The notes under the pieces: model-generated
Databases searched by the model: none
Told to the model about the DNA's origin: nothing
What the model saw: the letters and a program-made list of their open reading frames with translations, nothing else
Shown: positions 3,752 to 42,534 of the stretch, piece by piece
Layout of the letters: each line of letters starts with the position of its first letter
Position numbering within the stretch: position 1 is the first letter of the stretch
Assembly (NCBI GenBank): GCA_937128055.1
Contig: CAKZMC010000060.1
Coordinates: 687 to 64,686, forward strand
Source: an uncultured Actinomycetes bacterium
Lineage (GTDB): Bacteria > Actinomycetota > Geothermincolia > Geothermincolales > RBG-13-55-18
DNA length: 64,000 bases
Direction: 5' to 3'
Translations under genes and position numbers: made by a program

Positions 3752-3948
3752 AGCGCCTCCTCGCCGAATCGCAGAGTGCCACCGCCGGTTGCCCGAGCGC
3801 CGCCGGCGCCAGCTCCCTGGCATAAGCCGGCTGCGGCGCTGAACGGTGGCGGCAGAACGCCGGCATGCAAATCATAATCTAACCCTTGGGCTCCCGCGGG
3901 TCCAGGGCTTCCCCTGCTTCCCCTGCTCTTGGGGAGCGCGTGCCGCGC

Positions 3949-5862: not shown

Positions 5863-5931
5863 GCGGGGTCAGCGGCGCGTTCGAGAGGTAGGGGGCATGG
5901 GCCCGGTCCATTACATGTTATCCGGGGGACG

Positions 5932-8612: not shown

Positions 8613-8671
8613 CTTCTCACCTCCCGTGGCTTCCAACATTATAACGTTGAAAACTGTTCCGCCCCCCGCTC

Positions 8672-9835: not shown

Positions 9836-10019
9836 GGCTTGCCCTCCGTTCCGTGACGTTTTTCCCGCGCCTGCCAGCGGAATCGCGAGCACACCCCGTG
9901 GGCGAGGTCGCGGGACGCCATAAAACATTATAGCGGCAACACCGCGCAGGAGGAGCCAAGACGCAGGGCCGGGTGGGCCTGCGTCTCCTGCCCGGCGCGG
10001 CGAACGGGCGCCCTCGCCG

Positions 10020-23676: not shown

Positions 23677-24093
23677 GTCCCGGGACCGTGAAGCCGTATG
23701 GGAGCAATCCATCGTCCACCTCCGTGTGATGCGGGAAGGCGCGCATCGCCCAGCCCGCCGTCCGTATCGTGCAAAGGAGCGGCTCGCCTCGCCCCTTACC
23801 GCGGCTTTCCTCGCGGCCACGCCCCGCCGCCGGGGCCGTTCTGCGTCGTGCGCCCTCATGCGAAGCGCCATCATTTTATCATTTGCCGCCGCGGGGAAGG
23901 CGGGTTGCCCGGGGAGCTGCCGGAGGTTCCCGGGCGGCGAGCGGCGTGAATACGCGGGAAGGAACGGGACGGCGGGGAGGCCTGTCCACGCAACTCCGGG
24001 AGGTGCGCCGGCGATTGACGGAGAGGCTGCCCGCCAGTAGAATGTCATTACCGACCGTTAAGTAAAATCCTCGTCAAGCAGGGGAGGGAGTGG

Positions 24094-24681
24094 ATGAACA
24101 AGGCACGTTGGGAGGAGATACTGTCCGTGGCCGCACGCCTCTTCCGCGAGAAGGGGTATCGCGCCACCACCATGGAGGACATCGCAAGAGAGCTCCGGGT
24201 GACAAAGCCTGCCCTTTATTACTACATCGACACCAAGCACGATTTGCTCTACGCCATCTGCGGGGCGGCAATCGAGCGGCTCATGGAGGGGGCCAAGAAG
24301 ATCATGCGCGAGGACGGTTCGGTGGAAGATAAGCTGCGCCGCCTCATCGCCTGGCACGTGAACATGTTCTCAGCGAACGGCGACGTGATCGCCGTGTACC
24401 TGGCGGACGAGAACGAGCTTGCCGAGGATAAGCGGAAATTCATCCGTTCCCGGAGCCGGGAGTACGAGTCGTTCTACCGGGAGCTCATGGAGCGGGGCAT
24501 CGAGGAGGGCAGGTTCCGGGAGCTGGACGTCCCCATGGCCGTGCGCGCCATATCCGGCATGTGCAACTGGCTCTCCGTCTGGTTCCGCCCGGGAGGGAAG
24601 TACACGGCGGAGGAGATCGCGGAGATATTCTCCGACCTCTTCCTCCGCGGGTGCGCGGCTGCGGCGGGCGGGGAGGCGTGA
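24094..24681 (+). CDS. TetR/AcrR-family transcriptional regulator
   Basis: LFREKGYRATTMEDIARELRVTKPALYYYIDTKHDLL is a TetR HTH. Divergent from the hydrolase and upstream of the DUF35/thiolase cluster. Confidence 0.85.
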   Translation: MNKARWEEILSVAARLFREKGYRATTMEDIARELRVTKPALYYYIDTKHDLLYAICGAAIERLMEGAKKIMREDGSVEDKLRRLIAWHVNMFSANGDVIAVYLADENELAEDKRKFIRSRSREYESFYRELMERGIEEGRFRELDVPMAVRAISGMCNWLSVWFRPGGKYTAEEIAEIFSDLFLRGCAAAAGGEA

Positions 24682-24775
24682 CGGGGGGCCGGCGTAGATG
24701 GCGCGGCCGCGCGTCGTGAGCGGGCGGTTTTCCCGGGGCGGAAAGCAGCCCGCTGGGTGAAGGGAGGTGCGGGGA

Positions 24776-25246
24776 ATGGAGGACTGGAGAACGGGCCAGG
24801 AGATCCTGGTCATGGAGGGCAGGATCAAGGTCCCCTACCGCTGGGCGGCGGGAGAGACGGGGACCCGCTACCTGCAGGCCCTGCGGGACGAGATGAGGTT
24901 CCTGGGCACCAGGTGCCCGCAATGCGGCGTCGTCTACCACCCGCCGCGCCGCCACTGCCCCGACTGCGGCACGGAATGCGAGTGGAGGGAGCTTGCGAGC
25001 CGGGGGGTGCTCGTCACCTACACGGTGGTGCGGCGACACCATTCCCAGCTAACGCCCCTCGACATCCCCTTCGCCTACGGGATCATCCGGCTGGAGGGCG
25101 CGGACACCGGTTTCCTGCACCTGCTGCACGAGTTCGCGGAGGGCGAGCTGCGCGCGGGCATGGAGGTGGAGGCGGTCTTCGCCACGGAGAGGGAGGGGAG
25201 CGTACGCGACGTGCGCTACTTCCGGCCCCTGCGGGAGGCGGTTTGA
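24776..25246 (+). CDS. DUF35 / OB-fold protein with Zn-ribbon (thiolase partner; BbsA/ChsH2-like)
   Basis: CPQCGVVYHPPRRHCPDCG Zn-ribbon followed by an OB-fold region. ATG 9 nt after GGGAGG. Confidence 0.8.
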   Translation: MEDWRTGQEILVMEGRIKVPYRWAAGETGTRYLQALRDEMRFLGTRCPQCGVVYHPPRRHCPDCGTECEWRELASRGVLVTYTVVRRHHSQLTPLDIPFAYGIIRLEGADTGFLHLLHEFAEGELRAGMEVEAVFATEREGSVRDVRYFRPLREAV

Positions 25247-26392
25247 ATGGAGCCGGTGGCGGTGGTGGGCGTGGGGATGACCCGCATGGAGCGTGAGAGG
25301 CGCCCGGACGGGTACGCCGACCTGGTTTACGAGGCGGTGTGCCTGGCGCTCGCGGACGCGGGGATGACCATCGACCAGGTGGACAACGTGGTAACGATCT
25401 CCAACGACTTCTTCGACGGCAGGACCATCTCCTCCATGGCCGTGCAGGACGCCTGCGGGTCCTACGACAAGAACATATCCACCGTGGAGGGGGACGGCGC
25501 CTTCGGGGCGTTTTACGGCCTCATGCGCATCCTCTCCGGGAGCTTCGGCACAACCTTGGTCTGCGCCCATCACAAGGGGTCGGAGAGCGACATGTCGCTC
25601 ATCACCAACGCCATGTTCGACCCGGTCTACGAGCGTTCCCTGGGCATAGAGGCGGTGACCTCGGCGGCCCTGCAGGCGCGCGCCTACATGGACAGGTACG
25701 GCGTGAGCGAGGAGGATTGCGCACTGGTCTCCGTGAAGAACCGCGCCAACGCCCTCCGCAACCCGCTGGCCCAGCTACCCCTGGAGCTGACGGTGGAGGA
25801 GGTCATGTCCTCTCCTTACCTCGCCGAGCCCCTCAAGGTCCTGGACTGCTGTCCCGTCTCCGACGGCGCCGCGGCGCTCGTCCTGGCATCGGCCGAGAGG
25901 GCGCGCAAGGCGGCCGGAAAGCCGGTGTGGGTGCGGGGCGTGGCGCACTGCTGCGACGCCTACCACCTGGGCGACCGCGACCTGAGCGACGTACGCGCCC
26001 TGCAGCGGGCGGCGGCGAAGGCCTATTCCATGGCCGGCATCGACGATCCCGCACGCGAGATCGACGTCGTCGAGCTGTACGATGCCTTCTCCTACATGGA
26101 GCTCATGTGGCTGGAGGGCCTCGGATTCTGCGGGCGGGGCGAGGCCGGGAGGCTCACCGCCGGCGGGGCCACCTCCCTGGAGGGGAACACGCCGGTAAAC
26201 GCATCGGGGGGCTGCCTGGCGGGGAACCCGGTGCTGGTTGCGGGGCTGAACCGCATCATCGAGTGCGCCTTGCAGGTGCGGGGAGAGGCCGGCGAGCACC
26301 AGGTGGAAGGGGTGCGCACGGCGGTGGCGCAGGGGATCAACGGCCCCTGCGGCCAATCGCATTGCGTCTGGGTGCTGGGAGGTGAGCGGTGA
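25247..26392 (+). CDS. Thiolase-like protein (SCP-x / nonspecific lipid-transfer protein family)
   Basis: MEPVAVVGVGMTRMERER...NASGG near the C-terminus. SCP-x thiolase architecture, paired with DUF35. Confidence 0.85.
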   Translation: MEPVAVVGVGMTRMERERRPDGYADLVYEAVCLALADAGMTIDQVDNVVTISNDFFDGRTISSMAVQDACGSYDKNISTVEGDGAFGAFYGLMRILSGSFGTTLVCAHHKGSESDMSLITNAMFDPVYERSLGIEAVTSAALQARAYMDRYGVSEEDCALVSVKNRANALRNPLAQLPLELTVEEVMSSPYLAEPLKVLDCCPVSDGAAALVLASAERARKAAGKPVWVRGVAHCCDAYHLGDRDLSDVRALQRAAAKAYSMAGIDDPAREIDVVELYDAFSYMELMWLEGLGFCGRGEAGRLTAGGATSLEGNTPVNASGGCLAGNPVLVAGLNRIIECALQVRGEAGEHQVEGVRTAVAQGINGPCGQSHCVWVLGGER

Positions 26393-27582
26393 TGGGAAAG
26401 AGAGTGGCCGTGGTGGGCGTGGGCATGACCAGGCAGCGCTCCTCGCGCCCCGACGTCAACGGGCAGGAACTCATCCACGAGGCGGTACGCGCCGCCCTCG
26501 CGGACGCGGGGATGAAGCGGGATGACATCGACGCCGTGGTCATCGGCAACATGGACCACTTCGAGGGCATCAACTACGTGGACACCTGGTCCGTGGACGG
26601 CAGCGGAGCTCTCATGAAGCCCATCATGAAGCTGACCACCGGCGGCACCACCGGGTCCACGGTGGCCATGGCCGCCTACTACCACGTGGCCTCCGGGCTC
26701 TTCGACCGGGTGTTGGCCATCGGGTGGGAAAAGAACTCCGAGTCCGACACCACGGGGGCCATCATCACCGCCTTCGATCCCTTCTGGGACCGCCCCATCT
26801 TCGCCGGTGCGGTGGCGGGCCTGGCCCTGGAGGCAACCCAGTACATGCACCTGACCGGGGCCACGGAGGAGGACGCAGCCTACGTGGCGGTGCGCGAGCG
26901 CAGGCACGCCCTCAACAACCCCTTCGCCCACCTGCACATCAACCTGACCGTCGAGGACGTGATGAACTCACCCTACCTCTCCTGGCCGGTGAAGATGGGC
27001 GACATGTGCCCCCGCACCGACGGGGCCTGCGCGCTGGTCTTCGCGTCCGAGGATCTTGTGGAAGAATTTCCCAATCAACCGGCGTGGATCCTGGCCGTGG
27101 CCGACCGCCACCTCTGGGCCTACACCAGCGACCCCTACGTCAACCAGGCGCTGGAGAACGGCTGGTGGTTCCCCGCCCTGGAGTGGGCGGCCCGGGAGGT
27201 CTACGACAAGGTGGGGGTCAGGGAGCCCCTCAAGGAGATCGACGTGGCGGAGCTCTACCTGCCCTACTCCTTCGCGGGGCTGCGCTACATGGAGTCGCTG
27301 GGCTTCTGCCCGCGCGGAGGCGGCCCGGAGCTGGTGCGCTCGGGGGCCACCGACATGGGCGGGGAGTGCCCGGTGAACCCCTCGGGCGGGGTCATGTCCT
27401 CCAACGCCATCGGGGCCACGGGGCTCTTGCGGGTGGCGGAGTGCGCCCTGCAGATACAGGGGCGGGCGGAGGACCGCCAGGTCCCGGACGTGAGGCTGGC
27501 GCTGGCCACCGGCTTCGGCGGCTGCTTCTGGTCGGACGTGCTGCTCATGGGCAGGGAGAAACCGGAAAGGTCACGGGGGTGA
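26389..27582 (+). CDS. Thiolase-like protein (SCP-x family), second copy
   Basis: MMGKRVAVVGVGMTRQ...NPSGG. A diverged paralogue of the preceding gene. ATGA overlap with it. Confidence 0.85.
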   Translation: MMGKRVAVVGVGMTRQRSSRPDVNGQELIHEAVRAALADAGMKRDDIDAVVIGNMDHFEGINYVDTWSVDGSGALMKPIMKLTTGGTTGSTVAMAAYYHVASGLFDRVLAIGWEKNSESDTTGAIITAFDPFWDRPIFAGAVAGLALEATQYMHLTGATEEDAAYVAVRERRHALNNPFAHLHINLTVEDVMNSPYLSWPVKMGDMCPRTDGACALVFASEDLVEEFPNQPAWILAVADRHLWAYTSDPYVNQALENGWWFPALEWAAREVYDKVGVREPLKEIDVAELYLPYSFAGLRYMESLGFCPRGGGPELVRSGATDMGGECPVNPSGGVMSSNAIGATGLLRVAECALQIQGRAEDRQVPDVRLALATGFGGCFWSDVLLMGREKPERSRG

Positions 27583-27587
27583 GGGAG

Positions 27588-28094
27588 ATGGCCGGGGAGA
27601 AGAACGGGGAGGGAAAGGAAGCGAAGGAGGAGAGGAAGGAGCTGATCAAGCTGGAGAGCGGCGAGGCGGAGCAGCCCTTCCGCTGGTCGGCGGGGACCTA
27701 CGGGTCGCGTTTCCTCAGCGAGTTGCGGGACAATTGCAGGTTCGTGGGGGTCAGGTGCCCCTGCTGCGGGAGGGTCTACGTGCCCCCGCGCCGCGTCTGC
27801 GGGCCCTGCTTCCGGGAACTGACGGAGCTGGTGCCCGTCTCGGATGAGGGCGAGGTGATCACCTTCACCGTGGTAAGCTTCGGGTTCGTGGACCCCTCCA
27901 CCGGACGGCAGAAGCCGGTTCCCTACGGGTACGCGGTCATCAAGCTGGACGGCGCCGACACCTACATCCTCCATTACCTGGACGAGACGGACCCGGGAAA
28001 GATAAAGGTGGGAGCCAGGGTGAAGGCGGTCTTCGCGGAGGAGCGCAGCGGCAGCATGCTCGACGTGAAGCACTTCGCCCTCCTCCGGGCATGA
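27588..28094 (+). CDS. DUF35 / OB-fold Zn-ribbon protein, second copy
   Basis: CPCCGRVYVPPRRVCGPCF Zn-ribbon plus OB-fold. ATG after GGGGTGAGGGAG. Stop overlaps the next gene. Confidence 0.8.
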   Translation: MAGEKNGEGKEAKEERKELIKLESGEAEQPFRWSAGTYGSRFLSELRDNCRFVGVRCPCCGRVYVPPRRVCGPCFRELTELVPVSDEGEVITFTVVSFGFVDPSTGRQKPVPYGYAVIKLDGADTYILHYLDETDPGKIKVGARVKAVFAEERSGSMLDVKHFALLRA

Positions 28095-28138
28095 ACGGGG
28101 CCTGGCCCCCTTCGTGCCTGCGCGTCGGGGAGGTGGAC

Positions 28139-28912
28139 ATGGAAGGCGACGCTTTCAGGGTGGAGAAGGAGGAAGGGGTAGCCCGTTGCACCATGGACGG
28201 GCCTAACATGAACGCTCTGGGCGTGGAGATGGTCACGGGGATGTTGGAGGGCCTGCGCCGTGTCCTGGACGACGAGGAGGTGCGGGTCATCGTCATCCGC
28301 GGCGAGGGGGGGAACTTCTCCGCCGGCGCCGACCTCTCCCTCATGGGGGAGAAGATGGACCCCGCCCTGCTCGCGGAGACCATGCGCGCCATGGGCCGGC
28401 TCATCCGCGAGCTGCACGAGGGACCCCGGCCGCTCATAGCCGAGGTGGACGGGTGGACGGTAGGAGGGGCCTTCGGCCTGGCCATGGCCTCGGATATCAC
28501 CTACGCCACGGAGCGCGCCCGCTTCTACCTGAGCTTCGTGCGCATCTCCCTGGTCCCCGACTTCGGGTCCGCCTATTTCCTGGCCCGCCGCGTGGGCCTG
28601 GCGCGCGCCAAGGAGATCGCCCTCACCGGGCGCGTTATCGACGCCGAGGAAGCCCTGCGCATCGGCATGGTCAACCGCGTGTTGGACCACGGGGAGATCT
28701 CCGGCGAGGTGATGAGGTTGGCGAAGAGGCTGGCGGGAAGGCCACCGGACATACTGGCGCATACCAAGCGCTTCGTGAACACGGCCTTCACCGTGGACCT
28801 GGGAACGCAGCTGGACCTGGAGGCTTATCTCCAGTCCCTCAACGTGACCACCCCGGAGCACCGGGAGGATGTGAGGAAGTTCCTGGAAAAAGCCGGCGGC
28901 GGAGGAGGATGA
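28139..28912 (+). CDS. Enoyl-CoA hydratase/isomerase (crotonase family)
   Basis: IRGEGGNFSAGADLS oxyanion-hole motif, DGWTVGGAFGLAMASD. Start at MEGDAFRVEKEEGVA, which has GGGGAGGTGGAC upstream. Confidence 0.85.
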   Translation: MEGDAFRVEKEEGVARCTMDGPNMNALGVEMVTGMLEGLRRVLDDEEVRVIVIRGEGGNFSAGADLSLMGEKMDPALLAETMRAMGRLIRELHEGPRPLIAEVDGWTVGGAFGLAMASDITYATERARFYLSFVRISLVPDFGSAYFLARRVGLARAKEIALTGRVIDAEEALRIGMVNRVLDHGEISGEVMRLAKRLAGRPPDILAHTKRFVNTAFTVDLGTQLDLEAYLQSLNVTTPEHREDVRKFLEKAGGGGG

Positions 28913-29121
28913 GGAAACGCCGCGGCGTCATCGCGGGAGGGGGAAGGGGAAAGCGAGCTGCCGGGGAACGGCGGTGAAGGCGGCGGCGTGGCACGGAAGA
29001 GGCGTGCGGAGGGTCCGGGCCGCGGCGCTCGTCATGAGGAATCATCGTGGAGAGACATGGCATATGCCGAGTATCTCGGCAACGAAAAGGCGTGCGGAGC
29101 ATGCACGGGAGGTAGGTTGAG

Positions 29122-31767
29122 ATGAAGGATTACGACGTGGTGGTCATCGGCGCCGGCCTGGGGGGTCTCGCGTCTGCGGCGTTCCTGGCCAAGGAGGGGA
29201 AGAGGGTGCTGCTGCTGGAGAGGCATTACGTGCCCGGAGGTTACGCCACCTCCTTCCTGCGCGGCCGGTTCGAATTCGAGATCTCCCTGCACGAGCTGTC
29301 CGGCCTGGGCGACGAGAAGAACCCCGGACCCCTGTGGAGGATGTTCAAGGAGCTCGGGGTGACGGAGAAGGTGGAGTTCCTCCCCATCCCCGAGTTCTAC
29401 CGCTGCGTGCTGCCCGACGTGGACCTGGTGGTTCCCACGGGAAGGGAGAACTTCGAGGCCGCGCTCTGCGAGCGCTTCCCGCACGATGCCGAGGGGATCA
29501 GGGAATTCACCGACATCATGTTCAAATTCGCCGAGGAGGCGCTGCGGGCCAACCGCGTGGGCATGAAGATGGTCATGGAAAACCAGGAAGAATTTCCCAC
29601 CCTGCTCACCTACTTCGGGCGCAGCCTGAAGGAGGTGAGGGACCCTCTCATCAAGGACCCCGCGGCGCGCACCGTGCTCGATGTCATCTGCGGGTACTAC
29701 GGCAACCCGCCGTCGCGGATCTCATTCCTCATCTACGCCCTGGGGACGGCCAGCTACATACGCTTCGGGCCCTGGCACGTCAAGGGAAAGTCGCAGGCCC
29801 TCTCGCAGGCTTTCATGGACCGCATTGAGGAGATGGGGGGCGAGGTCTGGCTGCGCAACGGCGCCCGGCGCATCCTGGTCGAGGGAGGGCGGGTGAAGGG
29901 CGTGGTTGCCCAGGACGGCACGGAGATCGCCTGCCCGGTGGTGGTGAGCAACGCCAACCCCTACGTCACCTGCCTGGAGCTCATCGGCAAGGAGGACACC
30001 CCCGACTGGTACCTGCGCAGGTTGGGCGCCTGGTCGGGAGGGAACTCCACCGTAAACCTCTACCTGGGCGTGGACTGCCCCTACCAGGACCTGGGGCTCT
30101 TCACCCACGAGACCTTCTGCAGCGACAGCTACGACGTCGACGGCGACTGGAAGAAGATGCGGGCAGGAGAGGTCCTGGAACCCTCGGACGTCGCGGTGAC
30201 CGCGTACAACACGGTGGACGACGAGTTCTCCCCGCCCGGCACCTCGTCCCTGGTGTGCACCTTCATCGCCTTCGCCGATCCCTGGCTGAAGCTGCCGCCG
30301 CAGCGCTATTTCGAGACCAAGCAGCGGGTGGCGGAGCGCGCCCTGGAGCTGGCGGAGCGCGTGGCCCCCGGACTGCGCGACCACATCGAGGTCATCGAGG
30401 TGGCCACCCCCCTCACCAACATGCGCTATTCACGCAACCCGGCGGGGAGCATCATCGGTTTCGACGAGACCTTCGCCGGCAGCGGGGCGGTGCGGCTGCC
30501 GGCGGAGGGGCCGCTGGCGGGGCTCTATTTCTCCGGTGCCTGGGTGAACATCGGGGGCGGCTACGAGCCCTCCCTCTATTCCGGGTTCCTCACCGCGGGC
30601 AGGGTCCTCAGAGACATGGAGAAGGGCGGCCCCGGGGCAGAGGCCATGCAGAAACTACGGGAGCAAGTGGAAAAACAGGTGGAGGGCGCCGAGCTTATGG
30701 AAAGCCCCCTGGTCCGCGTGGAGCAGGCCCTCGCGGGGCTGCATCCCGAGCGGGTGAAGCTCCGGGTTGCGGAGGTCATAGACGAGACCGCGAGCGCCAG
30801 GACCCTGCGCATGGTGGCGGCGGAGGGGAGGCTCCCCGGCTTCTGCGCCGGCCAGTACGTCAACCTCTTCTGCGAGATAGGCGGCATCGCGACCTCCCGC
30901 CCCTATTCCATCTCCTCCCCTCCGGGGAAGGATTTCTGGGACATAACCGTGCGCCGCATGCCGGGAGGTTTCGTCTCCGACTTCCTCCTGGACAGGGTGA
31001 AGGAGGGCGATGTCTTTCTTTCCACGGGACCGTCCGGGAGCTTCTACCACGAGCCCCTCATGGACACGAGCGACCTGGTCTTTCTGGCGGGAGGCTCGGG
31101 CATAACCCCCTTCGCCTCCATGATCCGGGAGGCGGCGGAGAAGGGCACGGACCTCACCATGCACCTGCTCTACGGCAGCCGGGACCCGGACGACGTCATC
31201 TTCGGGGAGGAACTCCGCAGGCTCGCCGCCGAGCACCCCTGGTTCGCCTGCGACCTGGTCATCTCCGAGCCGCCGCAGGGATACGAGGGCAGGTGCGGCA
31301 TGCTGGACGCGGAGACCATCCGCGCGCTGGTGGGAGAGGTGGCGGGCAAGACCTTCTACCTCTGCGGCCCCGCTCCCATGTACGCCCTGTGCGAGGAGGC
31401 CCTCCTCTCCCTGGGGGTGCCGCGGCGCAGGATACGCCGCGAGGCCTACGGCCCTCCGCAGGACATCACCACCGAGCCGGGATGGCCGGGGCTGGACCCC
31501 GACACCGTCTTCCAGGTGACCGAGGAGCGCAGCGGCAGGACCTTCCCCGCCCGCGCCGGGGAACCCCTCATGAACTCCATGGAGAGGGCGGGTCTGGTGG
31601 TGGAGGCCGTGTGCCGTTCCGGCGAGTGCAGCGTGTGCCGCACGCGGCTGCGTGAGGGCCGGGTCTTCGCGCCGCAGCGGGTGCTCAAGCGCTGGGTGGA
31701 CGAGAAGGCGGGCTTCATCCACCCCTGTATGTGCTACCCCCTCTCCCACCTAACAATAAAGATTTAA
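29122..31767 (+). CDS. Tri-domain redox fusion: CrtI/phytoene-desaturase-like FAD oxidoreductase + ferredoxin-NADP reductase-like (FAD/NAD) + plant-type 2Fe-2S ferredoxin
   Basis: N-terminus MKDYDVVVIGAGLGGLASAAFLAKEGKRVLLLERHYVPGG (GxGxxG dinucleotide fold, CrtI-like length about 500 aa). Middle RPYSISS...GGSGITP (FNR-like RxYS and NAD motifs). C-terminus CRSGECSVCRTRL...HPCMC (2Fe-2S). A single 881-aa ORF. Confidence 0.85.
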   Translation: MKDYDVVVIGAGLGGLASAAFLAKEGKRVLLLERHYVPGGYATSFLRGRFEFEISLHELSGLGDEKNPGPLWRMFKELGVTEKVEFLPIPEFYRCVLPDVDLVVPTGRENFEAALCERFPHDAEGIREFTDIMFKFAEEALRANRVGMKMVMENQEEFPTLLTYFGRSLKEVRDPLIKDPAARTVLDVICGYYGNPPSRISFLIYALGTASYIRFGPWHVKGKSQALSQAFMDRIEEMGGEVWLRNGARRILVEGGRVKGVVAQDGTEIACPVVVSNANPYVTCLELIGKEDTPDWYLRRLGAWSGGNSTVNLYLGVDCPYQDLGLFTHETFCSDSYDVDGDWKKMRAGEVLEPSDVAVTAYNTVDDEFSPPGTSSLVCTFIAFADPWLKLPPQRYFETKQRVAERALELAERVAPGLRDHIEVIEVATPLTNMRYSRNPAGSIIGFDETFAGSGAVRLPAEGPLAGLYFSGAWVNIGGGYEPSLYSGFLTAGRVLRDMEKGGPGAEAMQKLREQVEKQVEGAELMESPLVRVEQALAGLHPERVKLRVAEVIDETASARTLRMVAAEGRLPGFCAGQYVNLFCEIGGIATSRPYSISSPPGKDFWDITVRRMPGGFVSDFLLDRVKEGDVFLSTGPSGSFYHEPLMDTSDLVFLAGGSGITPFASMIREAAEKGTDLTMHLLYGSRDPDDVIFGEELRRLAAEHPWFACDLVISEPPQGYEGRCGMLDAETIRALVGEVAGKTFYLCGPAPMYALCEEALLSLGVPRRRIRREAYGPPQDITTEPGWPGLDPDTVFQVTEERSGRTFPARAGEPLMNSMERAGLVVEAVCRSGECSVCRTRLREGRVFAPQRVLKRWVDEKAGFIHPCMCYPLSHLTIKI

Positions 31768-32274: not shown

Positions 32275-33057
32275 GTGAGCGATAAAAGAACCTGGAGGAT
32301 GCAGGACGGCGATGAGAGCGAGGCGGTCCTCCTGGAGCGCATAAGGAACGGAGGCGATACCAAGGCGAAGGAGAGATTCTTCGCGAGGTACGAGGACCTG
32401 TTGCACCGCTTCGCGCACAAATACAGTTCGGACCGGCTGCCCTACGAGGACGCCTTCCAACTGGCGGCGCTGGGGCTCATGAAGGCCCTGCACCGCTTCG
32501 ATCCCCGGCGCGGGGTTTCCTTCATCACCTTCGCCTATCCCACCATCGAGGGGGAGCTGAAGAAGCATTACCGTGACCACCTGGAGCTGATCCGCCTGCC
32601 ACGGCCTCTGCGCGACCTGAGGCAGCGCGTTGTCGCCGCCTGGCGTGACATGGAACAGGACGGGAAGGAACCGGACGTGGCCATGCTGGCGGAAAGGCTG
32701 GGGACGGGCGAGGAGGAGATCATAGAGGTCCTGGCCGCGCAGCGCAACAGCAGCGTGTTTTCGCTGGATGCCTCGCACGGGGAAGAGGGCGGAGAGGCGC
32801 TGGAGTCTTTCGTCGGGACATACGACGCGGCCTACGACGAGGTGGAGAAGAACATCCTCATCGACGACGCCCTCGCCGGGTTGCCGCCGCGTCACCGCAA
32901 GGTCATGGAGCTTCGCCTGCGGAGAGGCATGACCCAGACCCGCATCGCCCGTGAGCTGAAGGTCTCGCAGATGCACGTCTCACGCATTATCCGGGAAGCG
33001 GTGGAGCTGTTGCGCAGGAGTTGCCACCAGGAAGCGGCGTCGCGCGAGGCGGGTTAG
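32275..33057 (+). CDS. RNA polymerase sigma factor, group 3 (SigB/SigF/SigG-like)
   Basis: Region 2 (YEDAFQLAALGLMKALHRFDP...FITFAYPTIEGELKKHYRD), region 3, region 4 HTH (MTQTRIARELKVSQMHVSRI). GTG start. Confidence 0.85.
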   Translation: MSDKRTWRMQDGDESEAVLLERIRNGGDTKAKERFFARYEDLLHRFAHKYSSDRLPYEDAFQLAALGLMKALHRFDPRRGVSFITFAYPTIEGELKKHYRDHLELIRLPRPLRDLRQRVVAAWRDMEQDGKEPDVAMLAERLGTGEEEIIEVLAAQRNSSVFSLDASHGEEGGEALESFVGTYDAAYDEVEKNILIDDALAGLPPRHRKVMELRLRRGMTQTRIARELKVSQMHVSRIIREAVELLRRSCHQEAASREAG

Positions 33058-34175: not shown

Positions 34176-34504
34176 ACGATCCTCCTTGCTTACAGGCGAC
34201 CGCGGGCTCTGTACGCGGTGCTTCACCGTCTCATCTCATTATTCCCCGAAAGTTATCGGGATTACAGCCTCTTTATGTTAATGTCAACACTTGGCAACAC
34301 TTGGGGTCATGCCTCATTCGTTGCCTTTCCAAGCATCCCGTTTCATGCATGCGTTCTGCAATATGGGATGGGTTTGCGGCGGGCACTTATGTTTAGGTGG
34401 AGGAAGGTATAGAATGGACGAAAAGCGTTGCCGCAATCTATTTTACCTGGGGAGATTCCGTTTTACGGGTGAAACGCGTTTTTCGCGACCATTGCGGAAA
34501 GGGG

Positions 34505-35953
34505 ATGATGTTAATGTCTCTGGCGGAGGAAACGGCGTTCCTGGACGCCACGGCGCAGGCGGAGATGGTGCGCAGGAAGGAGGTCAAGCCGGTCGAACTG
34601 CTGGAGGCGGCCATCGAGCGCGTGGAGCGCCTCAACCCGCAGCTCAACGCGGTGATCACGCCCATGTATGAGCTGGCGCGCGAGGAGGCGGAGGGAAGGC
34701 TGCCACAGGGGCCTTTCACCGGCGTGCCCTTTCTCCTCAAGGATATCATCGCCGCGTACAAGGGCGTGCGCCTGAGTTTTGGGTCGGCTTACTTCGAGGA
34801 TTACGTCCCCGACTTCGACAGCGAGTTGGTGGTGCGGCTGCGCAAGGCCGGCCTGGTGATATTCGGCAAGACAAACGCGCCCGAGTTCGGCATCCTTCCC
34901 ACCACCGAACCCCGCCTCTTCGGCCCCACCCGCAACCCCTGGAACCTCGAGAGGAGCACGGGGGGATCCAGCGGCGGGTCGGCGGCGGCGGTCGCCGCGG
35001 GCATCGTTCCCGCGGCGCACGCAAATGACGGCGGGGGCTCTATCCGCATACCGGCCTCCTGCTGCGGGCTCTTCGGGCTCAAGCCCACGCGTGCGCGCAA
35101 TCCCCTGGGGCCGGCGTTGGGGGATGTCCTCGGCGGATTGGTCGTGGAACACGCGCTTACGCGGTCGGTGAGGGACAGCGCCGCCCTGCTGGACGCCACC
35201 TGCGGCCCGGACCTCGGCGACCCTTACTGGGCGCCGCCCCCGGCCCGGCCCTTCCTGCAGGAGGTGGGCGCGGACCCGGGAAGGCTGCGCATCGCCTACA
35301 CCGTGCGGGCAGGGGACGCGGTGGCCCACCCCGACTGCGTGCGGGCGGTGGAGGAGGCGGCGGCGCTCTGCACGGAGCTGGGCCATGCCGTGGAGGAGAA
35401 GGACCTCGTCCTGGATGTAGAGGCCATAACTTCGCAGTTCATGGTGTTGTGGGGGGCGGCGCAAGCCTGGATGGCGGACGGCATGGCGCTGGCGACGGGG
35501 AAGGCTCCCGCCCCGGACCTCTTCGAGCCCCTCACGTGGGCGCTCATAGAGATGGGGCGAGGTTTCAATGCCGGCCAATACCTTACCGCGGTTACCTTGC
35601 TGCAGCGCGTCTCGCGGGACATATCCCGCCAGGCAGAGGCTTACGACCTGTGGCTCACGCCCACCCTTTCGGAACCACCGCCGCCTCTGGGCACTTTCGA
35701 TTCCCCGCCCGAGAATCCCCTCTACGGGATCGTTCGCGCCGGCGTCTTCGTGCCCTTCACCCCCATCAGCAACATCACCGGGATGCCGGCCATGAGCGTC
35801 CCCTTGCACTGGAACGAGGAGGGTTTGCCCATCGGCGTGCAGTTCATCGCCAAGTTCGGGGACGAGGCCACCCTCTTCCGGCTCGCGGCGCAGCTCGAGG
35901 AGGCAAGGCCCTGGGCGGGCCGCAGGCCGCCCGTCAACGCCTCCCCATCTTGA
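34505..35953 (+). CDS. Amidase (amidase-signature family)
   Basis: [14 protein letters not shown] amidase signature, catalytic K and S context (KTNAPEFG...GGSIRIPAS). Start at ATGATG after GGAAAGGGG. Confidence 0.85.
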
Positions 35954-36037
35954 GTTGCGAGGCCGGTTCCCAGGGGATAGGCATCGACCGCCTCCCGCGG
36001 AAGCCCGAGTCAACGCCTCCCCATCTTGAGTTGCGAG
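35933..36037. repeat. Perfect 29-bp direct repeat GTCAACGCCTCCCCATCTTGAGTTGCGAG (35933-35961 and 36009-36037) spanning the convergent 3' ends of the amidase and MCP genes
   Basis: Copy 1 holds the amidase stop (TGA) and encodes its last residues PVNASPS. Copy 2, read on the other strand, encodes the MCP C-terminus SQLKMGRR plus its stop. 47-bp spacer. Confidence 0.6.
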
Positions 36038-38238
36038 ACCATTTCCAGCAGGTGGTGGGCCACCTCGGCCAGCTTCTCCGCGGTCACGGTAAGCTCTGTG
36101 GTCGATTGGGTCTGCTGCTCCGAGGAGGCGTTGATCTCCTCGTAAGCCTCGGCGGTACTCTCCACCTTGGACCGCATGGCCTCCAGCGAGGCGGTGAGCC
36201 TCTCGCTCATGTCGAGCTCCCGGGAGGAAGCCTGCGCTATGCTCTCGGCCAGGCGGGACATGCGGTTGACGGCCTCGGAGATGGAGATCAGCGCCTGGTC
36301 GGTGCGGTCCACCGTCTCCATGCCCACGTACATGCCCATGGTCCCCTTTTCCATGAGGCTTTTCGCCGTGTCCACGTCCTTCTGTATCGCGTGCACAAGG
36401 TCACTTATCTTCTGGGCGGAGGCCGCCGCCTCCTGCGCCAGCTTCTTCACCTCGTCGGCGACCACGGCGAAGCCCTTGCCGTACTCCGGGACGCGGGCCG
36501 CCTCTATGGCGGCGTTGAGGGCGAGGAGGTTGGTCTGGTCGGCGATGCGGGTGATGATGTCCACGATGGTGCCGATCTGCTCCGAGCTCTCGCCCAGGGA
36601 TAGGATGGCGTCCATGGTGATGTCGAGCATATCCTTGAAGTCCCCTATTTTCCGCACCGCCTCATGCGCGGATTCCCGGCCCTCCGTCACGATCCTCTCT
36701 GCGTCCTGGCTTATCTCCTGGCTTTGGGCGGCTTGGGCGTGGGACAGGGAGATGGTTTCGGCCACGCCGGCCATGATCTCCTCCACCTTTATGATGTGCT
36801 CCACCTCGTCCTCGATCTGTCCGGAAAGCTCCTGTACCAGCGCGTTCAGCTCCTCTATGGCCCCCATGATCTCCTCGGATACGGCCACGATGTTCTCCGC
36901 CCCCTCGTTTACCTCGCCGGAGGTTTCCAGGAGGCCCTGGGTGATGCGGCGCAGCGAGGCCAGCATCTCCTTGTATGAGCTGGATAGCTCTCCCACGTCG
37001 TCCAGCGAGTCCACCGGCACCTCCACGTCCAGCTCTCCGCCCGCCACCGCGCGGCAGATGCCGACGAGGCGCTTCAGGGGATCGGAGAAGTTGTGGTAGA
37101 GGATGAGCACCATGAAAGCAGCCACCAGGGCGCTGAAGATGGAGAGCACGATCATGGTGGGGGTGAGCTGCCACATGGTATGGAAGGAGACGCCCGTGCG
37201 ATCCGCGCGGAGCACCTTCCACCCCGGCAGGCCCGGAAGCGCGGCCATGGTCACCAGGTACTCGCGGCCCTTATGGATCTCGATGCTGCTGGCGGAATCG
37301 CTCTCCTCCCGGGAGGTTTCGGATACCAGTTCCTGCCATACGTCCTCTTTCATGCGCTCCTTTTCGCGCTGGTAATAGACGTCGCCGTCCGCGTTCATCA
37401 CCTGCAGGCTTTCCTGGGGGGTTATGGCCAGTTCCTCGACGATGGCGTCAAGGTCGGAGAAGGGAGCTTCCTCGAGGATGGCGGAACCCAGGCGTTGCGC
37501 GAGAAGGCGCACGTTGTCCATTCCACGTTTTACCATCTCCTCCCTGAGGTTCTCGCTGGAGAGGTAGAAGGCAGCCACCCAGGTTATGCCCAGGGTGAAG
37601 ACGACGAGCACCGTAGCGAAGGAGGCGAGGCGCTTTCCGAGACCGGTGGCGGTGTAGTAGCCGAAACCCTCGCAGGAGGCGAGCAATATCTCCATAACCG
37701 GGCGCATCTCGCGGTGGGAGATGAAGACGGTCAGGAACCACTCCACCAAGCCCAGGATAAGGCCGAAGGCGACGTAGGAGAGGGTAAGGTTGGGGGTGAA
37801 GTCGGCGAAGCGCCCGAAGATGACCACCCCTAAGGCCAGGCTCAGCAAGATGGTGACCGATACGAGGGCGCCGTGAGTAAAAGCGGAGCGGTAGAGGTCT
37901 TCCTGCAGGCTGACCGCCAGCTTGCGGTCGCTTTCCGACGCGGGGTCCCTGGGGTAGCTGTACCAGGAGCGCAGGCGGCGGTAGAGGCGGCGCTGCAGGT
38001 AGCGGTAGATGAGGACGCAGATGATCACGAGGGGAACGACCAACACCCCGATGGCCAGAAGGTAGACGAGATACTGGCGCGCGGCGAAGCGGAATACGGT
38101 GAGGGAAAACAAGGCGAGCACCAATAGCGGCAGGGTACCCGCCGATAGCGAGATCTTGAACGTCAACTTCCTTGAGGCGGCGGCGAATTCCGCCCGCAGC
38201 CTCCGCAAGCTCTCAGGCGCCTCCGGCCTTTCCGCCAA
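36010..38238 (-). CDS. Methyl-accepting chemotaxis protein with multi-TM N-terminal sensor region
   Basis: C-terminal MCP signalling domain ([33 protein letters not shown]), a HAMP-like region, and at least 5 hydrophobic helices in the first 330 aa. Confidence 0.85.
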
Positions 38239-38615
38239 CTTCGGTCGCCCCCCGCCGTCTTTTCCGCTTCGCTTTCAGGTTTTCCGGTAGCGCGACCCGC
38301 GGGCTCTTTTCCCGCGGCCGCTCTGGTCTCTTGCTTTAATCGACCTCTCATCGGCGCGCCTTAACCGTAAGCGGGGAAGCGGGTTTGGCCCGGGGCCTTG
38401 CTGGCCTCCGGCTTCATGGCGGCTCTCAGGGGCCCGCGCTCTCGGCGCTCGCCGGCCGCGGCAGGAGAGCCGCCCCTGGCAAGAGAGGGCGCTCCGTCAC
38501 GCCCCGGCCAGGGGGGAGAATCCCCGCCGTCTTCGCGGGGAACGGGTTCCTGCAGGGAGCAAAACGGGTGGATGCTAAAATAGAAGCGTATCCGTCCACA
38601 GGGAGGAGAGGAAGT

Positions 38616-41058: not shown

Positions 41059-42534
41059 TCAGTCCTCTGAGGCGGCCGCGGTGAAGTAGAAGGTGGAACC
41101 CTCACCGGGGTTGGAGTTCACCCATACTCGTCCTCCCCAGGCCTCGACAGCCCGCTTTACGGTGGCCAGGCCGATGCCCAGGCCGTGGGGTTTCCCCCCT
41201 TCCAGGCGCTTGAAAGGAAGGAATATGTCATCCAGGAAACGATGATCGATGCCGCGCCCGTTGTCGCGCACGTAGAAGGTCACTACGCCGCCTTGTTGCA
41301 CCGCGCCGATCTCGATATGGGGATTCTCCGCTTCCGCGGTGTACTTGATGGCGTTGTCCACCAGGTTGTAGATGACCTGGTTGAGCTTGAGGGGGTCGGC
41401 GTGGATGCGAGGCAGCCCCCTCTCCACCTCCACCTCCACCTTGGCGGCCTGCAGCTCGACGGCGCGTTCGGCCAGCACCTCCGCTATCACGGTGCCCGGA
41501 TCTATGGAGACCATGTTCCCCTCCGGTTTGCCGGCCTGTGCGTAGGTCAGAAGGGATGCGGTGAATTCGTCCAGACGTTCCGCCGCCTTGGCGATGCTGG
41601 CGACGTACGCCTTCCTGTCCTCCTCCGTGAGGTCGTCCGACTGCAGGAGCTGGGCATATCCGGAGATGATGGAGAGGGGGGTGCGCAAGTCGTGAGAGAC
41701 CGTGGTGGCGAAGGCGTCCAGCTCGCGGTTGCGCGACACCAGTTGTTCCTCCATGAGCTTGCGCTCGGTGATGTCGCGGGAGTTGATTATGATGCCGCGC
41801 ACGGTGGTGTCGTCGAGGAGGTTGTTCACTATAGCCTCGTGGTAATGGTAGCTCCCGTCGCTGTGGCGGAAGCGCCTGATCGCGTGCAAGGGGTTTCCCG
41901 GGTTGCGCAGGATGAATTCGAAGTCCGCCCGCGACACCTCCAGGTCCTCGGGGTGGATGAAATCCAGGACGGATTTGCCGTAGATGGCGCCGCTGTAGCC
42001 GGTAATGGCGGCCGTGGAGCGGCTTCCCCAACGGAAGCGGAGGTTCTCGTCCAGGATGGTGACCATGTCCGCGGCGTTGTGCAGCAGGGCACGGTAATAG
42101 CGTTCCCTCTGTCGCAGGTCCTCTTCCGTTTTCTTCAGCTCCGTGACGTCGGAGAAGATGGCCAGGGCGCTCAGGAAGCTGCCGTCCGCGCGGAAGCGCG
42201 GTGAAGCGGTGACCCTGATGATGCGCCTCTCGCCGTCGGCGCGGATGATGGCCAGGTCGTAGGTACCGCTCTTTCCCTTTTTTCGCTCCTCGGTCTCTTC
42301 CCGCACCTGCCGGAAACTCCCCTCGTCCATGAAGTCCCGCAGGTTCCTTCCCACCAGGCCGCCCGGCGGTACGCCGAATATCTGGTGCGCGGCGAGGTTG
42401 GCGAAGAGAAAATTCTCCTCCTGGTCCACCTCGCTTATCCCCATGGCCTGGTTCTCGATAATGACCCGGTAGCGGTCTTCCTCCTCTTCCCTTCCCATGA
42501 CAATCGCCCCGTTAGCTGTGGGGCCCGTTTGCAT
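41059..42534 (-). CDS. PAS-domain sensor histidine kinase
   Basis: Three PAS-like segments, H-box SHDLRTPLSII, HATPase_c N/G boxes (DNAIKYT, DNGRGI, GLGIGLA). Confidence 0.85.
   Translation of the reverse strand: MQTGPTANGAIVMGREEEEDRYRVIIENQAMGISEVDQEENFLFANLAAHQIFGVPPGGLVGRNLRDFMDEGSFRQVREETEERKKGKSGTYDLAIIRADGERRIIRVTASPRFRADGSFLSALAIFSDVTELKKTEEDLRQRERYYRALLHNAADMVTILDENLRFRWGSRSTAAITGYSGAIYGKSVLDFIHPEDLEVSRADFEFILRNPGNPLHAIRRFRHSDGSYHYHEAIVNNLLDDTTVRGIIINSRDITERKLMEEQLVSRNRELDAFATTVSHDLRTPLSIISGYAQLLQSDDLTEEDRKAYVASIAKAAERLDEFTASLLTYAQAGKPEGNMVSIDPGTVIAEVLAERAVELQAAKVEVEVERGLPRIHADPLKLNQVIYNLVDNAIKYTAEAENPHIEIGAVQQGGVVTFYVRDNGRGIDHRFLDDIFLPFKRLEGGKPHGLGIGLATVKRAVEAWGGRVWVNSNPGEGSTFYFTAAASED

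Follow-up and report, generated by a model that had tools for sequence, protein, structure and literature searches.

The 64,000-nucleotide stretch of DNA analyzed here (the window), from an uncultured bacterium of the Geothermincolia, encodes an 881-residue protein in which a CrtI-superfamily flavin domain is fused to an FNR-like reductase module and a plant-type [2Fe-2S] ferredoxin. We tentatively propose, at a little under even confidence, that this protein is a self-sufficient cytoplasmic reductase with three cofactors, which would move electrons from NAD(P)H through a flavin and a [2Fe-2S] cluster to a second flavin and from there to a C=C bond of an acyl-CoA-type substrate. The internal electron path had already been suggested in an initial annotation of this DNA, and invariant cofactor ligands, coupled split genes, repeated and reversed fusions and the exchange of the reductase for another module in a relative (P0203) all argue for it. 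The family is large and widespread (relatives are encoded in at least 591 species-level genomes) and without biochemical characterization in the literature, our search of which returned no publication on a characterized member.

The open reading frame runs from ATG to TAA on the forward strand (positions 29122–31767, 881 amino acids plus stop) with no internal stop codon, and a GGGAGG Shine-Dalgarno sequence can be read 9 nt 5' of the ATG (29107–29112, + strand). Pfam assigns Amino_oxidase (residues 13–496, covering the full profile, positions 1–443), NAD_binding_8 (8–78), FAD_binding_6 (556–642), NAD_binding_1 (654–756) and Fer2 (799–873), all five above their gathering scores and all recovering the domains that had been anticipated. 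Pfam, NCBIfam, PDB and Foldseek searches define a CrtI/amine-oxidase-superfamily flavin domain (residues 1–505; 29122–30636, +), which is followed by an inter-domain linker with two predicted helices (residues 506–545; 30637–30756, +), by an FNR-like flavin/NAD(P)-binding reductase module located by Pfam, PDB and Foldseek matches and by conservation (residues 546–780; 30757–31461, +), and by the plant-type [2Fe-2S] ferredoxin domain located by Fer2 and its cysteine ligands (residues 799–873; 31516–31740, +). Frame, Pfam domains and intact cofactor motifs thus bear out the uninterrupted tri-domain ORF of the initial annotation. Its motifs RPYSISS (593–599), GGSGITP (657–663) and CRSGECSVC (831–839) and a fourth cysteine (869) are found as described; the N-terminal GxGxxG motif is real (GAGLGG) but occupies residues 10–15, not 8–13.

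The N-terminal domain had been called CrtI-like, which is correct for superfamily and fold but not at the level of the CrtI and CrtISO families. Like CrtI, CrtD and CrtISO in fold and full-length sequence, it matches the CrtI structure 4dgk (E = 1e-21 across residues 7–502) and returns 4rep (E = 6.5e-23, TM 0.76), 4dgk and 3ka7 in Foldseek. The NCBIfam models crtI_fam and carot_isom align over the full length (E ~1e-41), both far below cut-off, with 142.6 bits against a required 238.1 for TIGR02734 (CrtI; protein residues 6–502, model positions 1–495 of 504) and 142.2 bits against 586.9 for TIGR02730 (CrtISO). A bona fide CrtI-family paralogue at the related locus L001 reaches 321.9 bits on TIGR02734. 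Where CrtI shows F-D-A-G-P-T, the family carries F-E-x-[SA]-L-H (F-E-x-S-L-H in the window protein), and carotenoid-biosynthesis genes (crtB, crtE, crtY and others) were found neither around the target gene nor in the related loci examined. Vertebrate retinol saturase (RetSat) presumably has a similar F-D-x-G-x-H motif.

The histidine of this motif, His-57 (codon 29290–29292, +; E-F-E-I-S-L-H-E), is kept in all 59 homologues compared (32–89% identity), and the motif occurs in ∼125 of 150 representatives of a 50%-identity set. The Δ24-sterol desaturase of Sterolibacterium denitrificans, which belongs to the branch of limonene dehydrogenase CtmAB, has its flavin covalently attached to His57/His58, in the consensus G-F-L/R-X-N/S-T/L-H-A, and shares this residue number with the invariant histidine (PMC11061730 and supplement). 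CtmAB likewise has a histidine in F-x-x-[NS]-[TL]-H, ∼57 residues from the N terminus, as judged by its consensus. Phe, Ser, Leu, and His of our motif agree with the Ctm consensus and the Gly, Leu/Arg, and Ala positions differ, and the exact consensus is found in none of the 150 nearest representatives. His-57 is a candidate covalent-flavin or catalytic residue, placed by residue number and motif. There is one catalytic domain per polypeptide, and the 64-kb window contains no second CrtI-like paralogue; an extra CrtI-like gene is present at some related loci (L001, L004, and L028).

The C-terminal half shows the domain order and motifs of an FNR-like module with a plant-type ferredoxin, as previously annotated. 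R593-x-Y-S596 belongs to the flavin barrel, G657-G-S-G660 and C748-G-P to the NAD(P) fold, and the four [2Fe-2S] ligands (Cys-831, Cys-836, Cys-839, and Cys-869) occur together in 59 of 59 homologues, among which Arg-593, Gly-657, Gly-658, and Gly-660 are invariant as well. The PDB entry 1krh (BenC) matches this half with E = 8e-31, Foldseek returns 2pia, 7ylr and the CYP116B reductase domains 6kbh and 6laa, and the NCBIfam reductase equivalogs (PaaE, Hcr, GbcB, BenC, and MmoC) score 116–140 bits against cut-offs of 383–500. The module shares flavin barrel, NAD(P) fold and C-terminal [2Fe-2S] domain with PDR (2pia), BenC, PaaE, Hcr and CYP116B, and like the self-sufficient CYP116B-type fusions it is joined to the enzyme it would serve. 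Unlike in PDR-type systems, the client is a CrtI-superfamily flavoprotein and not a Rieske, diiron or P450 oxygenase or a hybrid-cluster protein. The initial annotation regarded this pairing as unusual, but a precedent exists in CtmAB of Castellaniella defragrans, a member of the COG1233 superfamily that requires the 2Fe-2S ferredoxin CtmE and the reductase CtmF (PMC4109377).

A database survey for the same architecture found the layout to be common and filed under generic names. In most distant relatives the same two parts are encoded by neighboring in-frame genes: the second gene starts 0–20 codons past the stop of the first in the same frame in 48 of 49 split loci, the stop and start codons fall where the linker segment begins, and the two-gene form is, judged from this arrangement, translationally coupled. 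Recoding at the split-gene stop (selenocysteine, pyrrolysine or programmed read-through) was considered; recoding of one codon is unsupported because TAA, TAG and TGA are all used and an ATG follows within 0–20 codons, although low-level read-through is still conceivable. A neighbor-joining tree places two independent fused clades among the split ones, which suggests at least two fusion events. One relative has the reversed order FNR-Fer2-CrtI-like (P0185), in P0203 the same catalytic domain is fused to a non-homologous reductase composed of Pyr_redox_2 and the [2Fe-2S] domain Fer2_BFD, and in P0176, P0199 and P0219 it is fused to 4HBT/4HBT_2 hotdog thioesterase domains. Members are encoded by strict anaerobes, among them Smithella, Dehalococcoidia, Geothermincolia and Asgard archaea, and also by aerobic Nocardia, Streptomyces and Kitasatospora.

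The target gene lies in a same-strand cluster headed by a TetR-family regulator (24094–24681, +), next to which a sigma-70-like promoter match is found at 24015–24043; the regulator gene is syntenic at five related loci (L001, L002, L013, L084, and L086). There follow on the + strand a DUF35 protein with zf-ChsH2 and OB_ChsH2_C domains (24767–25246), a type A thiolase-like protein without the nucleophilic Cys and with another residue in place of the catalytic His (GNP; 25247–26392), a type B thiolase-like protein with TTGGTTG for the Cys motif and SNA for GHP (26389–27582), a second DUF35 protein with an OB_ChsH2_C domain (27588–28094, start inferred at ATG 27588), and a crotonase-family enoyl-CoA hydratase/isomerase whose top NCBIfam matches are of the PaaG/oxepin-CoA type, all below cut-off (28091–28912). 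A 217-nt spacer (28889–29105) stands in place of the FabK-like (PF03060 NMO) gene found at this position in L084, a syntenic locus that is 89% identical, and an Rfam search (E ≤ 0.1) of the operon and the 217-nt gap revealed no riboswitch or other known RNA. Specific identities for the neighbors (BbsB, PaaG, FabK, cyclohexanecarboxyl-CoA dehydrogenase, and others) were rejected, as all NCBIfam equivalogs score below cut-off. The other window neighbors of the target include a sigma factor and an amidase. No CoA ligase, ACAD, FabK-like, AOR, Fe-ADH or glycyl radical enzyme (GRE) activase gene is present in the 64-kb window, and the lack of the first three is a counterpoint to an acyl-CoA substrate.

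Comparison of 80 related loci revealed a crotonase gene adjoining the target in 20 of them. CoA ligase, ECH, ACAD, thiolase-like or DUF35 genes lie within 5 kb in 16 of 20 loci of the window's fused clade, in 6 of 8 archaeal loci and in 8 of 14 loci from Deltaproteobacteria/Leptospirales, often immediately beside the target and on the same strand, and a FabK-like reductase is also among the neighbors in the window clade, Asgard archaea and Deltaproteobacteria. Two Asgard loci (L045 and L053) show the order DUF35-Thl-Thl-DUF35-CoA ligase-ECH-target, and Asgard and Dehalococcoidia loci also hold Fe-ADH, aldehyde:ferredoxin oxidoreductase and CoA ligase genes. The acyl-CoA context is absent from all 35 loci in the Nocardia/Streptomyces, Clostridia and gut Acutalibacteraceae clades, and substrates therefore vary across the family.

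For the window protein, gene neighborhood and the hotdog-thioesterase fusions of relatives point most plausibly to an acyl-CoA-type thioester as substrate and to C=C saturation as the reaction. Of the isoprenoid-, steroid- or fatty-acyl-like substrates envisaged initially, the last agrees with a genomic context that points to acyl-CoA thioesters; such a thioester may or may not carry an isoprenoid or steroid skeleton. FNR/PDR-type modules act as NAD(P)H-dependent electron donors. The FNR flavin would accept a hydride from NAD(P)H and release single electrons via the [2Fe-2S] cluster to re-reduce the CrtI-like flavin, and the latter would deliver two reducing equivalents to the substrate. The E°' values are about −320 mV for NAD+/NADH and about −10 mV for enoyl-CoA/acyl-CoA, and C-C desaturation or allylic hydroxylation is therefore unable to reduce NAD+. 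The related limonene dehydrogenase depends on an acceptor of positive potential (PMC12583861). Within the CrtI superfamily, RetSat is an example of C=C saturation and CrtISO of the use of a reduced flavin. The flavin of Δ24-sterol desaturase cycles between semiquinone and hydroquinone (PMC11061730), a cycle that would suit, and agrees with, a one-electron [2Fe-2S] carrier.

The same proposed logic (NAD(P)H to flavin to Fe-S to flavin to an acyl-CoA C=C bond) may be seen in 2,4-dienoyl-CoA reductase FadH and the type III aryl-CoA reductases of anaerobic CoA-ester degradation, but these are OYE TIM-barrel enzymes with FMN, [4Fe-4S] and FAD, so that the folds are unrelated and the analogy is functional. 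We speculate that an unsaturated acid would be activated by a CoA ligase, that our enzyme, functionally analogous to FadH and retinol saturase, would then reduce a conjugated or remote double bond, that a remaining double bond would be shifted or hydrated by the neighboring crotonase, and that the product would be handled by the FabK-like enzyme, ACAD and the thiolase-like/DUF35 proteins. Two counterpoints concern the direction of the reaction: the nearest characterized anaerobic relatives that bear the histidine (CtmAB and Δ24-sterol desaturase) are oxidative, and covalent flavins, which would raise the potential here if the protein had one, are commoner in dehydrogenases.

We consider it unlikely that the enzyme is redox-neutral, either a CrtISO-like isomerase or a double-bond-migrating or -hydrating enzyme, with the fused reductase only maintaining a reduced or semiquinone flavin. 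CrtISO does need reduced FAD without net redox change. The carot_isom and crtI_fam scores are equal (142 bits each), and some relatives are named “prolycopene isomerase” by JGI (for CRTI and CRTISO see PMC3382138). The flavins of Δ24-sterol desaturase rest as semiquinones that are not further oxidizable (PMC11061730), and one might therefore envisage a one-electron “activating” donor; electron acceptance poorly explains the genetic need of limonene dehydrogenase for CtmE. The reductase is however strictly 1:1 with the catalytic domain, coupled, repeatedly fused and even swapped for a non-homologous NAD(P)H/[2Fe-2S] module, which is the pattern of stoichiometric electron supply and not of occasional repair, and acyl-CoA double bonds are usually isomerized by a cofactor-free crotonase, here encoded by the neighboring gene. 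To our knowledge, neither CrtISO nor CrtI, CrtD or RetSat has a fused or dedicated reductase.

Decidedly unlikely is an O2-independent oxidative desaturase or allylic hydroxylase of the CtmAB/Δ24-sterol desaturase type, in which the module would drain electrons from the substrate-reduced flavin. The window protein resembles CtmAB in superfamily (phytoene dehydrogenase), in its 2Fe-2S ferredoxin and NAD(P)H-linked reductase, in presumably oxygen-independent chemistry and in a pathway that would continue via CoA ligation and crotonase-type enzymes; an oxidative role gains from the genetic tie of CtmAB to a 2Fe-2S ferredoxin and ferredoxin reductase, from the invariant His-57 in F-x-x-S-L-H, which has the residue number of the flavinylated Δ24-sterol desaturase histidine and matches the core of the CtmAB consensus, and from the Asgard and Dehalococcoidia Fe-ADH, AOR and CoA ligase genes, which parallel the route from limonene via alcohol, aldehyde and acid to the CoA ester. 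Such oxidations have an E°' of ∼0 mV or higher and cannot reduce a [2Fe-2S] cluster at ∼−200 mV or NAD(P)+. The exact Ctm consensus is absent, as described above, and a single catalytic chain replaces the αβ heteromer: in CtmAB two paralogues form a heterodimer, served by separate electron-transfer proteins of another class (CtmF is annotated as NADH:ferredoxin oxidoreductase) and Δ24-sterol desaturase is an oxidative α4β4 enzyme without iron-sulfur clusters, whereas the window protein has one catalytic domain fused to an FNR/PDR-type module. Unlike the proposed reductase, limonene dehydrogenase oxidizes its substrate and requires a positive-potential acceptor (PMC12583861).

An O2-dependent flavin monooxygenase, whose CrtI-like flavin would be reduced by NAD(P)H electrons and activate O2 in the manner of self-sufficient oxygenases with PDR-type reductases, is very improbable. 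Although the C-terminal half finds its nearest counterparts among oxygenase-system reductases (PaaE, BenC, GbcB, MmoC, and the CYP116B domains) and the Nocardia, Streptomyces and Kitasatospora members are aerobic, presence in strict anaerobes argues against O2-dependent chemistry: orthologues with identical invariant residues are plentiful in obligate anaerobes, the same window codes for an oxygen-sensitive glycyl radical enzyme, and we found no CrtI-superfamily example of a reductase-fed monooxygenase. The chance that two neighboring genes were joined by faulty assembly or sequencing at the junction is negligible: most of the distant relatives are truly two genes with a stop at precisely that junction, but more than 120 independent fused clusters of like length (880–889 amino acids, 56–89% identity, identical domain set) come from NCBI, JGI, ENA and Logan assemblies, the fused clade is monophyletic and 55–89% identical to the window protein, GC3 is even along the entire ORF, junction included (0.86–0.94), and in an alignment of 20 sequences each of the three modules shows invariant columns and the linker is gap-free, so that a frameshift merge is excluded at the level of sequence comparison. 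An exact-match gene index contained no entry for the window protein.

Returning to an NAD(P)H-driven acyl-CoA reductase, a bolder version is possible, though we doubt it: the family may be an undescribed class of flavin “saturases,” in which single electrons would pass from the [2Fe-2S] cluster to a His-57-linked, possibly covalent, semiquinone/hydroquinone flavin for H-atom transfer to a conjugated or remote acyl-CoA C=C bond, as part of a shared anaerobic pathway for unsaturated acids. If so, the enzyme would physiologically run in the direction opposite to that of the radical Δ24-sterol desaturase, its pathway partners would be the Cys-less thiolase-like/DUF35 pair, the crotonase and the FabK-like reductase, joined in several lineages by a glycyl radical enzyme, and the route for unsaturated, perhaps isoprenoid-derived, acids would be horizontally shared across Asgard archaea, Dehalococcoidia, Geothermincolia and syntrophic Deltaproteobacteria.

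In the CtmAB and Δ24-sterol desaturase branch, and likewise for RetSat, the physiological electron partners are poorly understood. By fusion, gene coupling and non-homologous replacement, the present family points to such a partner, an NAD(P)H-linked [2Fe-2S] module, and because the fusion names the partner the question is testable with one recombinant polypeptide. A self-sufficient NAD(P)H-dependent C=C reductase could also be of interest for biocatalysis. The family ranges from deep-subsurface Actinomycetota and Dehalococcoidia through Asgard archaea to Nocardia and gut Clostridia, and in its environmental clades marks a conserved, uncharacterized acyl-CoA gene cluster. Once its reaction is assigned, hundreds of genomes would gain an annotation, and the way in which anaerobes handle unsaturated or branched acids may come to light.

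The target protein of the window (29122-31767, + strand) is encoded by a single reading frame of 881 codons running from ATG to TAA, with a ribosome-binding site (GGGAGG) located 9 nt 5' of the start codon. The uninterrupted tri-domain layout proposed in the initial annotation is borne out by this reading and by the domain search it suggested: all Pfam families it named are found above their gathering scores, namely Amino_oxidase (residues 13-496, spanning the full 443-position profile), NAD_binding_8 (residues 8-78), FAD_binding_6 (residues 556-642), NAD_binding_1 (residues 654-756) and Fer2 (residues 799-873). The motifs quoted there are present, except that GxGxxG maps to residues 10-15 and not 8-13. 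The suggested survey for the same architecture covered 5.8 billion proteins and brought up more than 120 clusters with 56-89% identity to the target, nearly all of 880-889 aa with an identical domain set; the nearest relatives belong to Candidatus Solincola and further Geothermincolia (Actinomycetota). GC3 is 0.86-0.94 along the whole reading frame, junction included, and an alignment of 20 relatives contains invariant columns in each of the three modules. Uniform GC3, the many independent clusters of the same length and these invariant columns together show that the fusion is real. That it was created by assembly is extremely improbable, as proteins of the same layout occur in NCBI, JGI, ENA and Logan assemblies and GC3 is even over the junction.

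The N-terminal domain (residues 1-505, N-domain) is matched from end to end by Pantoea CrtI (4dgk, E=1e-21), and the predicted structure of the target (AlphaFold, pLDDT 78.7, pTM 0.75) best matches a CrtD-type desaturase (4rep), CrtI (4dgk) and an uncharacterised protein (3ka7). It scores 143 bits against NCBIfam crtI_fam (cut-off 238) and 142 bits against carot_isom (cut-off 587). As judged by these sub-threshold scores, the N-domain is a distinct family within the CrtI/COG1233 superfamily, neither CrtI nor CrtISO, so the earlier label of a CrtI-type desaturase is right about the superfamily and otherwise too specific. In domain order and in structure, the C-terminal half corresponds to phthalate-dioxygenase-reductase (PDR)-type modules (2pia, 7ylr, BenC 1krh and the reductase domains of CYP116B) and stays under every equivalog cut-off (PaaE, Hcr, GbcB, BenC). 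In 59 homologues from many phyla (32-89% identity), GxGxxG, Arg-593 and the Gly-657-Gly-658-x-Gly-660 motif of the reductase, and the cluster ligands Cys-831, Cys-836, Cys-839 and Cys-869 are invariant.

His-57, located in the motif E-F-E-I-S-L-H-E, is invariant in the same 59 sequences. An exhaustive N-domain search (E<=1e-30) yielded 1293 representatives of 50% identity clusters, and about 125 of the best 150 contain F-[ED]-x-[SA]-L-H 42 residues past GxGxxG, where CrtI instead carries F-D-A-G-P-T. The limonene dehydrogenase CtmAB and Δ24-sterol desaturase share the consensus G-F-L/R-X-N/S-T/L-H-A, and His-57 (α) and His-58 (β) of the desaturase bind its flavin covalently (PMC11061730 and supplement). 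The exact Ctm consensus is found in none of the best 150 representatives. The positional match, a comparison by consensus motif only, is suggestive of His-57 being a candidate covalent or catalytic histidine. The flavins of Δ24-sterol desaturase cycle solely between semiquinone and hydroquinone (PMC11061730), which would fit a one-electron [2Fe-2S] partner. CtmAB is a COG1233 member whose gene cluster includes genes for a genetically required 2Fe-2S ferredoxin, CtmE, and for a ferredoxin reductase, CtmF (PMC4109377). CtmABEF thus represents a separate-protein version of the partnership that the target would hold in one self-sufficient polypeptide, and the earlier premise that reductases of the PDR type normally serve oxygenases and not enzymes of the CrtI family has to be softened. 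The fused architecture itself appears to be undescribed in the searchable literature, in which we found no paper on the fused family; databases nevertheless contain many such proteins, under generic names ('FAD-dependent oxidoreductase', 'phytoene dehydrogenase-like protein/ferredoxin-NADP reductase', 'prolycopene isomerase', 'glycine betaine catabolism B').

A one-genome-per-species scan located at least 591 loci encoding a target relative, 80 of which were fetched for comparison. Loci at least 55% identical to the target are fused as in the window, and those at most 51% identical almost all consist of two genes: a CrtI-like gene of ~500 aa, ending in TAA, TAG or TGA near codons 493-514 of each match (L014-L077), and an FNR+Fer2 gene of ~385 aa starting 0-20 codons downstream. 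The second gene is in frame with the first in 48 of 49 split loci (L076 is the exception). Common ancestry, ready switching between the fused and the split form, or selection for some read-through could each account for this. Recoding at the stop is unlikely, as all three stop codons are used. In a neighbour-joining tree, two separate fused clades (that of the window and L052/L054/L056) are nested within split ones, from which we infer that the two-gene form is probably ancestral and that fusion occurred at least twice. The best 150 N-domain representatives are a mixture of ~500-aa and ~850-930-aa proteins. Among single homologues, P0185 carries the reductase module N-terminal to the same catalytic domain, P0203 replaces FNR+Fer2 by a non-homologous Pyr_redox_2 and BFD-type [2Fe-2S] module, and P0176, P0199 and P0219 have C-terminal hotdog thioesterase domains (4HBT, 4HBT_2).

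Several loci depart from these arrangements. L079 (Dehalococcoidia, 1690-4335) has an in-frame TGA at match codon 636, replacing the conserved Gly of S-T-G-P-S-G; this could mark a pseudogene or stem from a sequencing error or from recoding. L028 encodes, next to a CoA ligase and a split target, a stand-alone CrtI-like paralogue (5634-7340, - strand) with a lipoprotein-type signal sequence and the family motif F-D-x-A-L-H-E. Many of the best 150 representatives likewise have 30-60 residues ahead of the catalytic domain and may be exported members that lack a fused reductase. In L078 (Jordarchaeia, 9995-11485) and L080 (unclassified archaeon, 8609-10099) the N-domain gene alone is matched (residues 2-501), directly after genes for a glycyl radical enzyme (GRE), an activase and a HAD hydrolase; an adjacent FNR+Fer2 gene is not seen in the two ORF maps.

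In the window, the target is the last gene of a same-strand (+) cluster comprising a TetR regulator (24094-24681), DUF35 (24767-25246), thiolase-like proteins A (25247-26392) and B (26389-27582), a second DUF35 (27588-28094) and a crotonase (28091-28912), and is preceded by a 217-nt spacer (28889-29105). At the spacer's position, the syntenic, 89% identical locus L084 contains a FabK-like FMN gene (PF03060, 8828-9984). L084, L001, L004 and L013 have this gene immediately 5' of the target; in L008 and L085 it stands ahead of the crotonase, two genes upstream of the target. Its replacement by an unrelated spacer in the window looks like a lineage-specific deletion. A 3-hydroxyacyl-CoA dehydrogenase is not found in the operon. 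The thiolase-like pair represents two conserved paralogue types, A (VEGDGxFG/GNP) and B (TTGGTTG/SNA), both without the nucleophilic Cys. Type B and most type A copies have another residue in place of the His of GHP (the type A proteins of L013 and L021 retain a His). The pattern is kept from Actinomycetota to Asgard archaea (window, L001, L002, L013, L021, L041, L044, L045, L053, L059, L083, L084, L086), and the canonical thiolases of L012, L022 and L079 retain C...GHP. The pair may act as Ltp2-like aldolases or as a non-thiolytic complex.

A GRE of the PFL2/glycerol-dehydratase family (38385-40979, + strand; TIGR01774, 668 bits, cut-off 678) is located 6.6 kb 3' of the target; no activase homologue was detected within the 64-kb window. 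A sigma-70 factor (32275-33057, +), an amidase (34397-35953, +) and a methyl-accepting chemotaxis protein (36010-38238, -) lie in between, and multi-PAS histidine kinases (17998-20856 and 41059-42534, both -) flank the region. The arrangement from histidine kinases to GRE is wholly syntenic in L084. Geothermincolia, Dehalococcoidia, Leptospirales and archaea repeatedly have such a GRE no more than 10 kb from the target (L008 12683-15079, L009 2482-4878, L058 531-3044, L078 5403-7808, L080 3970-6420, L084 19555-21924, L085 6382-8778), and in L008 and L085 GRE and radical-SAM activase directly follow it.

Across the 80 loci, neighbours include AMP-forming CoA ligases (24), crotonases (20), acyl-CoA dehydrogenases (ACAD, 14), thiolase-like proteins (13), FabK-like proteins (11) and DUF35 (10). 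At least one acyl-CoA gene lies within 5 kb, often directly adjoining, in 16 of 20 loci of the window's fused clade, 6 of 8 archaeal loci and 8 of 14 from Deltaproteobacteria/Leptospirales. The order DUF35-Thl-Thl-DUF35-CoA ligase-crotonase-target is preserved in the Asgard loci L045 and L053, which also encode aldehyde:ferredoxin oxidoreductase and Fe-alcohol dehydrogenase. An acyl-CoA context is absent from all 35 loci of Nocardia/Streptomyces, Clostridia and gut Acutalibacteraceae. MAGs of the animal and human gut contain a split clade (Acutalibacteraceae and other gut Clostridia; L062-L075, L077) that is 32-33% identical to the target. Unlike the acyl-CoA context elsewhere, its context is glycan degradation: its genes lie between those for GH92 mannosidase, alpha-galactosidase, BNR/sialidase-like proteins and PF12831 FAD-oxidoreductases, and in Acutalibacteraceae among glycoside hydrolases. 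The chemistry is probably common to the family, and the substrate is not.

Strong comparative evidence for an NAD(P)H-linked [2Fe-2S] relay serving the catalytic flavin domain comes from the repeated fusions, the occurrence of both domain orders and the exchange of the reductase for another type of NAD(P)H/[2Fe-2S] module; the conserved ligands and coupled halves also back this idea of the initial annotation. In FNR/PDR modules NAD(P)H donates a hydride, and the electrons then move on singly via the [2Fe-2S] cluster. C-C or allylic C-H oxidation has an E°' around 0 mV, compared with -320 mV for NAD+, so NAD+ reduction is thermodynamically closed. Limonene dehydrogenase is stated to need a positive-potential acceptor and to be unsuited to highly reduced habitats (PMC12583861). 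From these three points we infer that electrons flow from NAD(P)H to the catalytic flavin. Together with the CoA-ligase/crotonase adjacency and the thioesterase fusions, this direction makes an NAD(P)H-dependent reductase of a C=C bond in an acyl-CoA-type substrate our best, if tentative, reading, with a little short of an even chance of being correct. FadH and retinol saturase would be functional analogues. Speculatively, a ligase would act first, followed by the target reductase, the PaaG-like crotonase as isomerase or hydratase, the FabK-like enoyl reductase or ACAD, and a thiolase-like/DUF35 step. A reduced-flavin-dependent isomerase, or a reductase in an activation role, is unlikely yet deserves some weight. 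A Ctm-like oxidative enzyme is a rather doubtful candidate, as such oxidation at ~0 mV could not reduce NAD+ (-320 mV). An oxygenase is very unlikely: many family members come from syntrophs, fermenters and Asgard archaea (scan of at least 591 loci), which disfavours O2-dependent chemistry. The probability beyond the acyl-CoA C=C reductase and its four rivals, assembly artefact included, is left to chemistry not considered here.

Taken together, the target represents an apparently undescribed self-sufficient architecture in a superfamily with one known ferredoxin-dependent system, and belongs to a large, uncharacterised family whose gene neighbourhood is conserved across domains of life.
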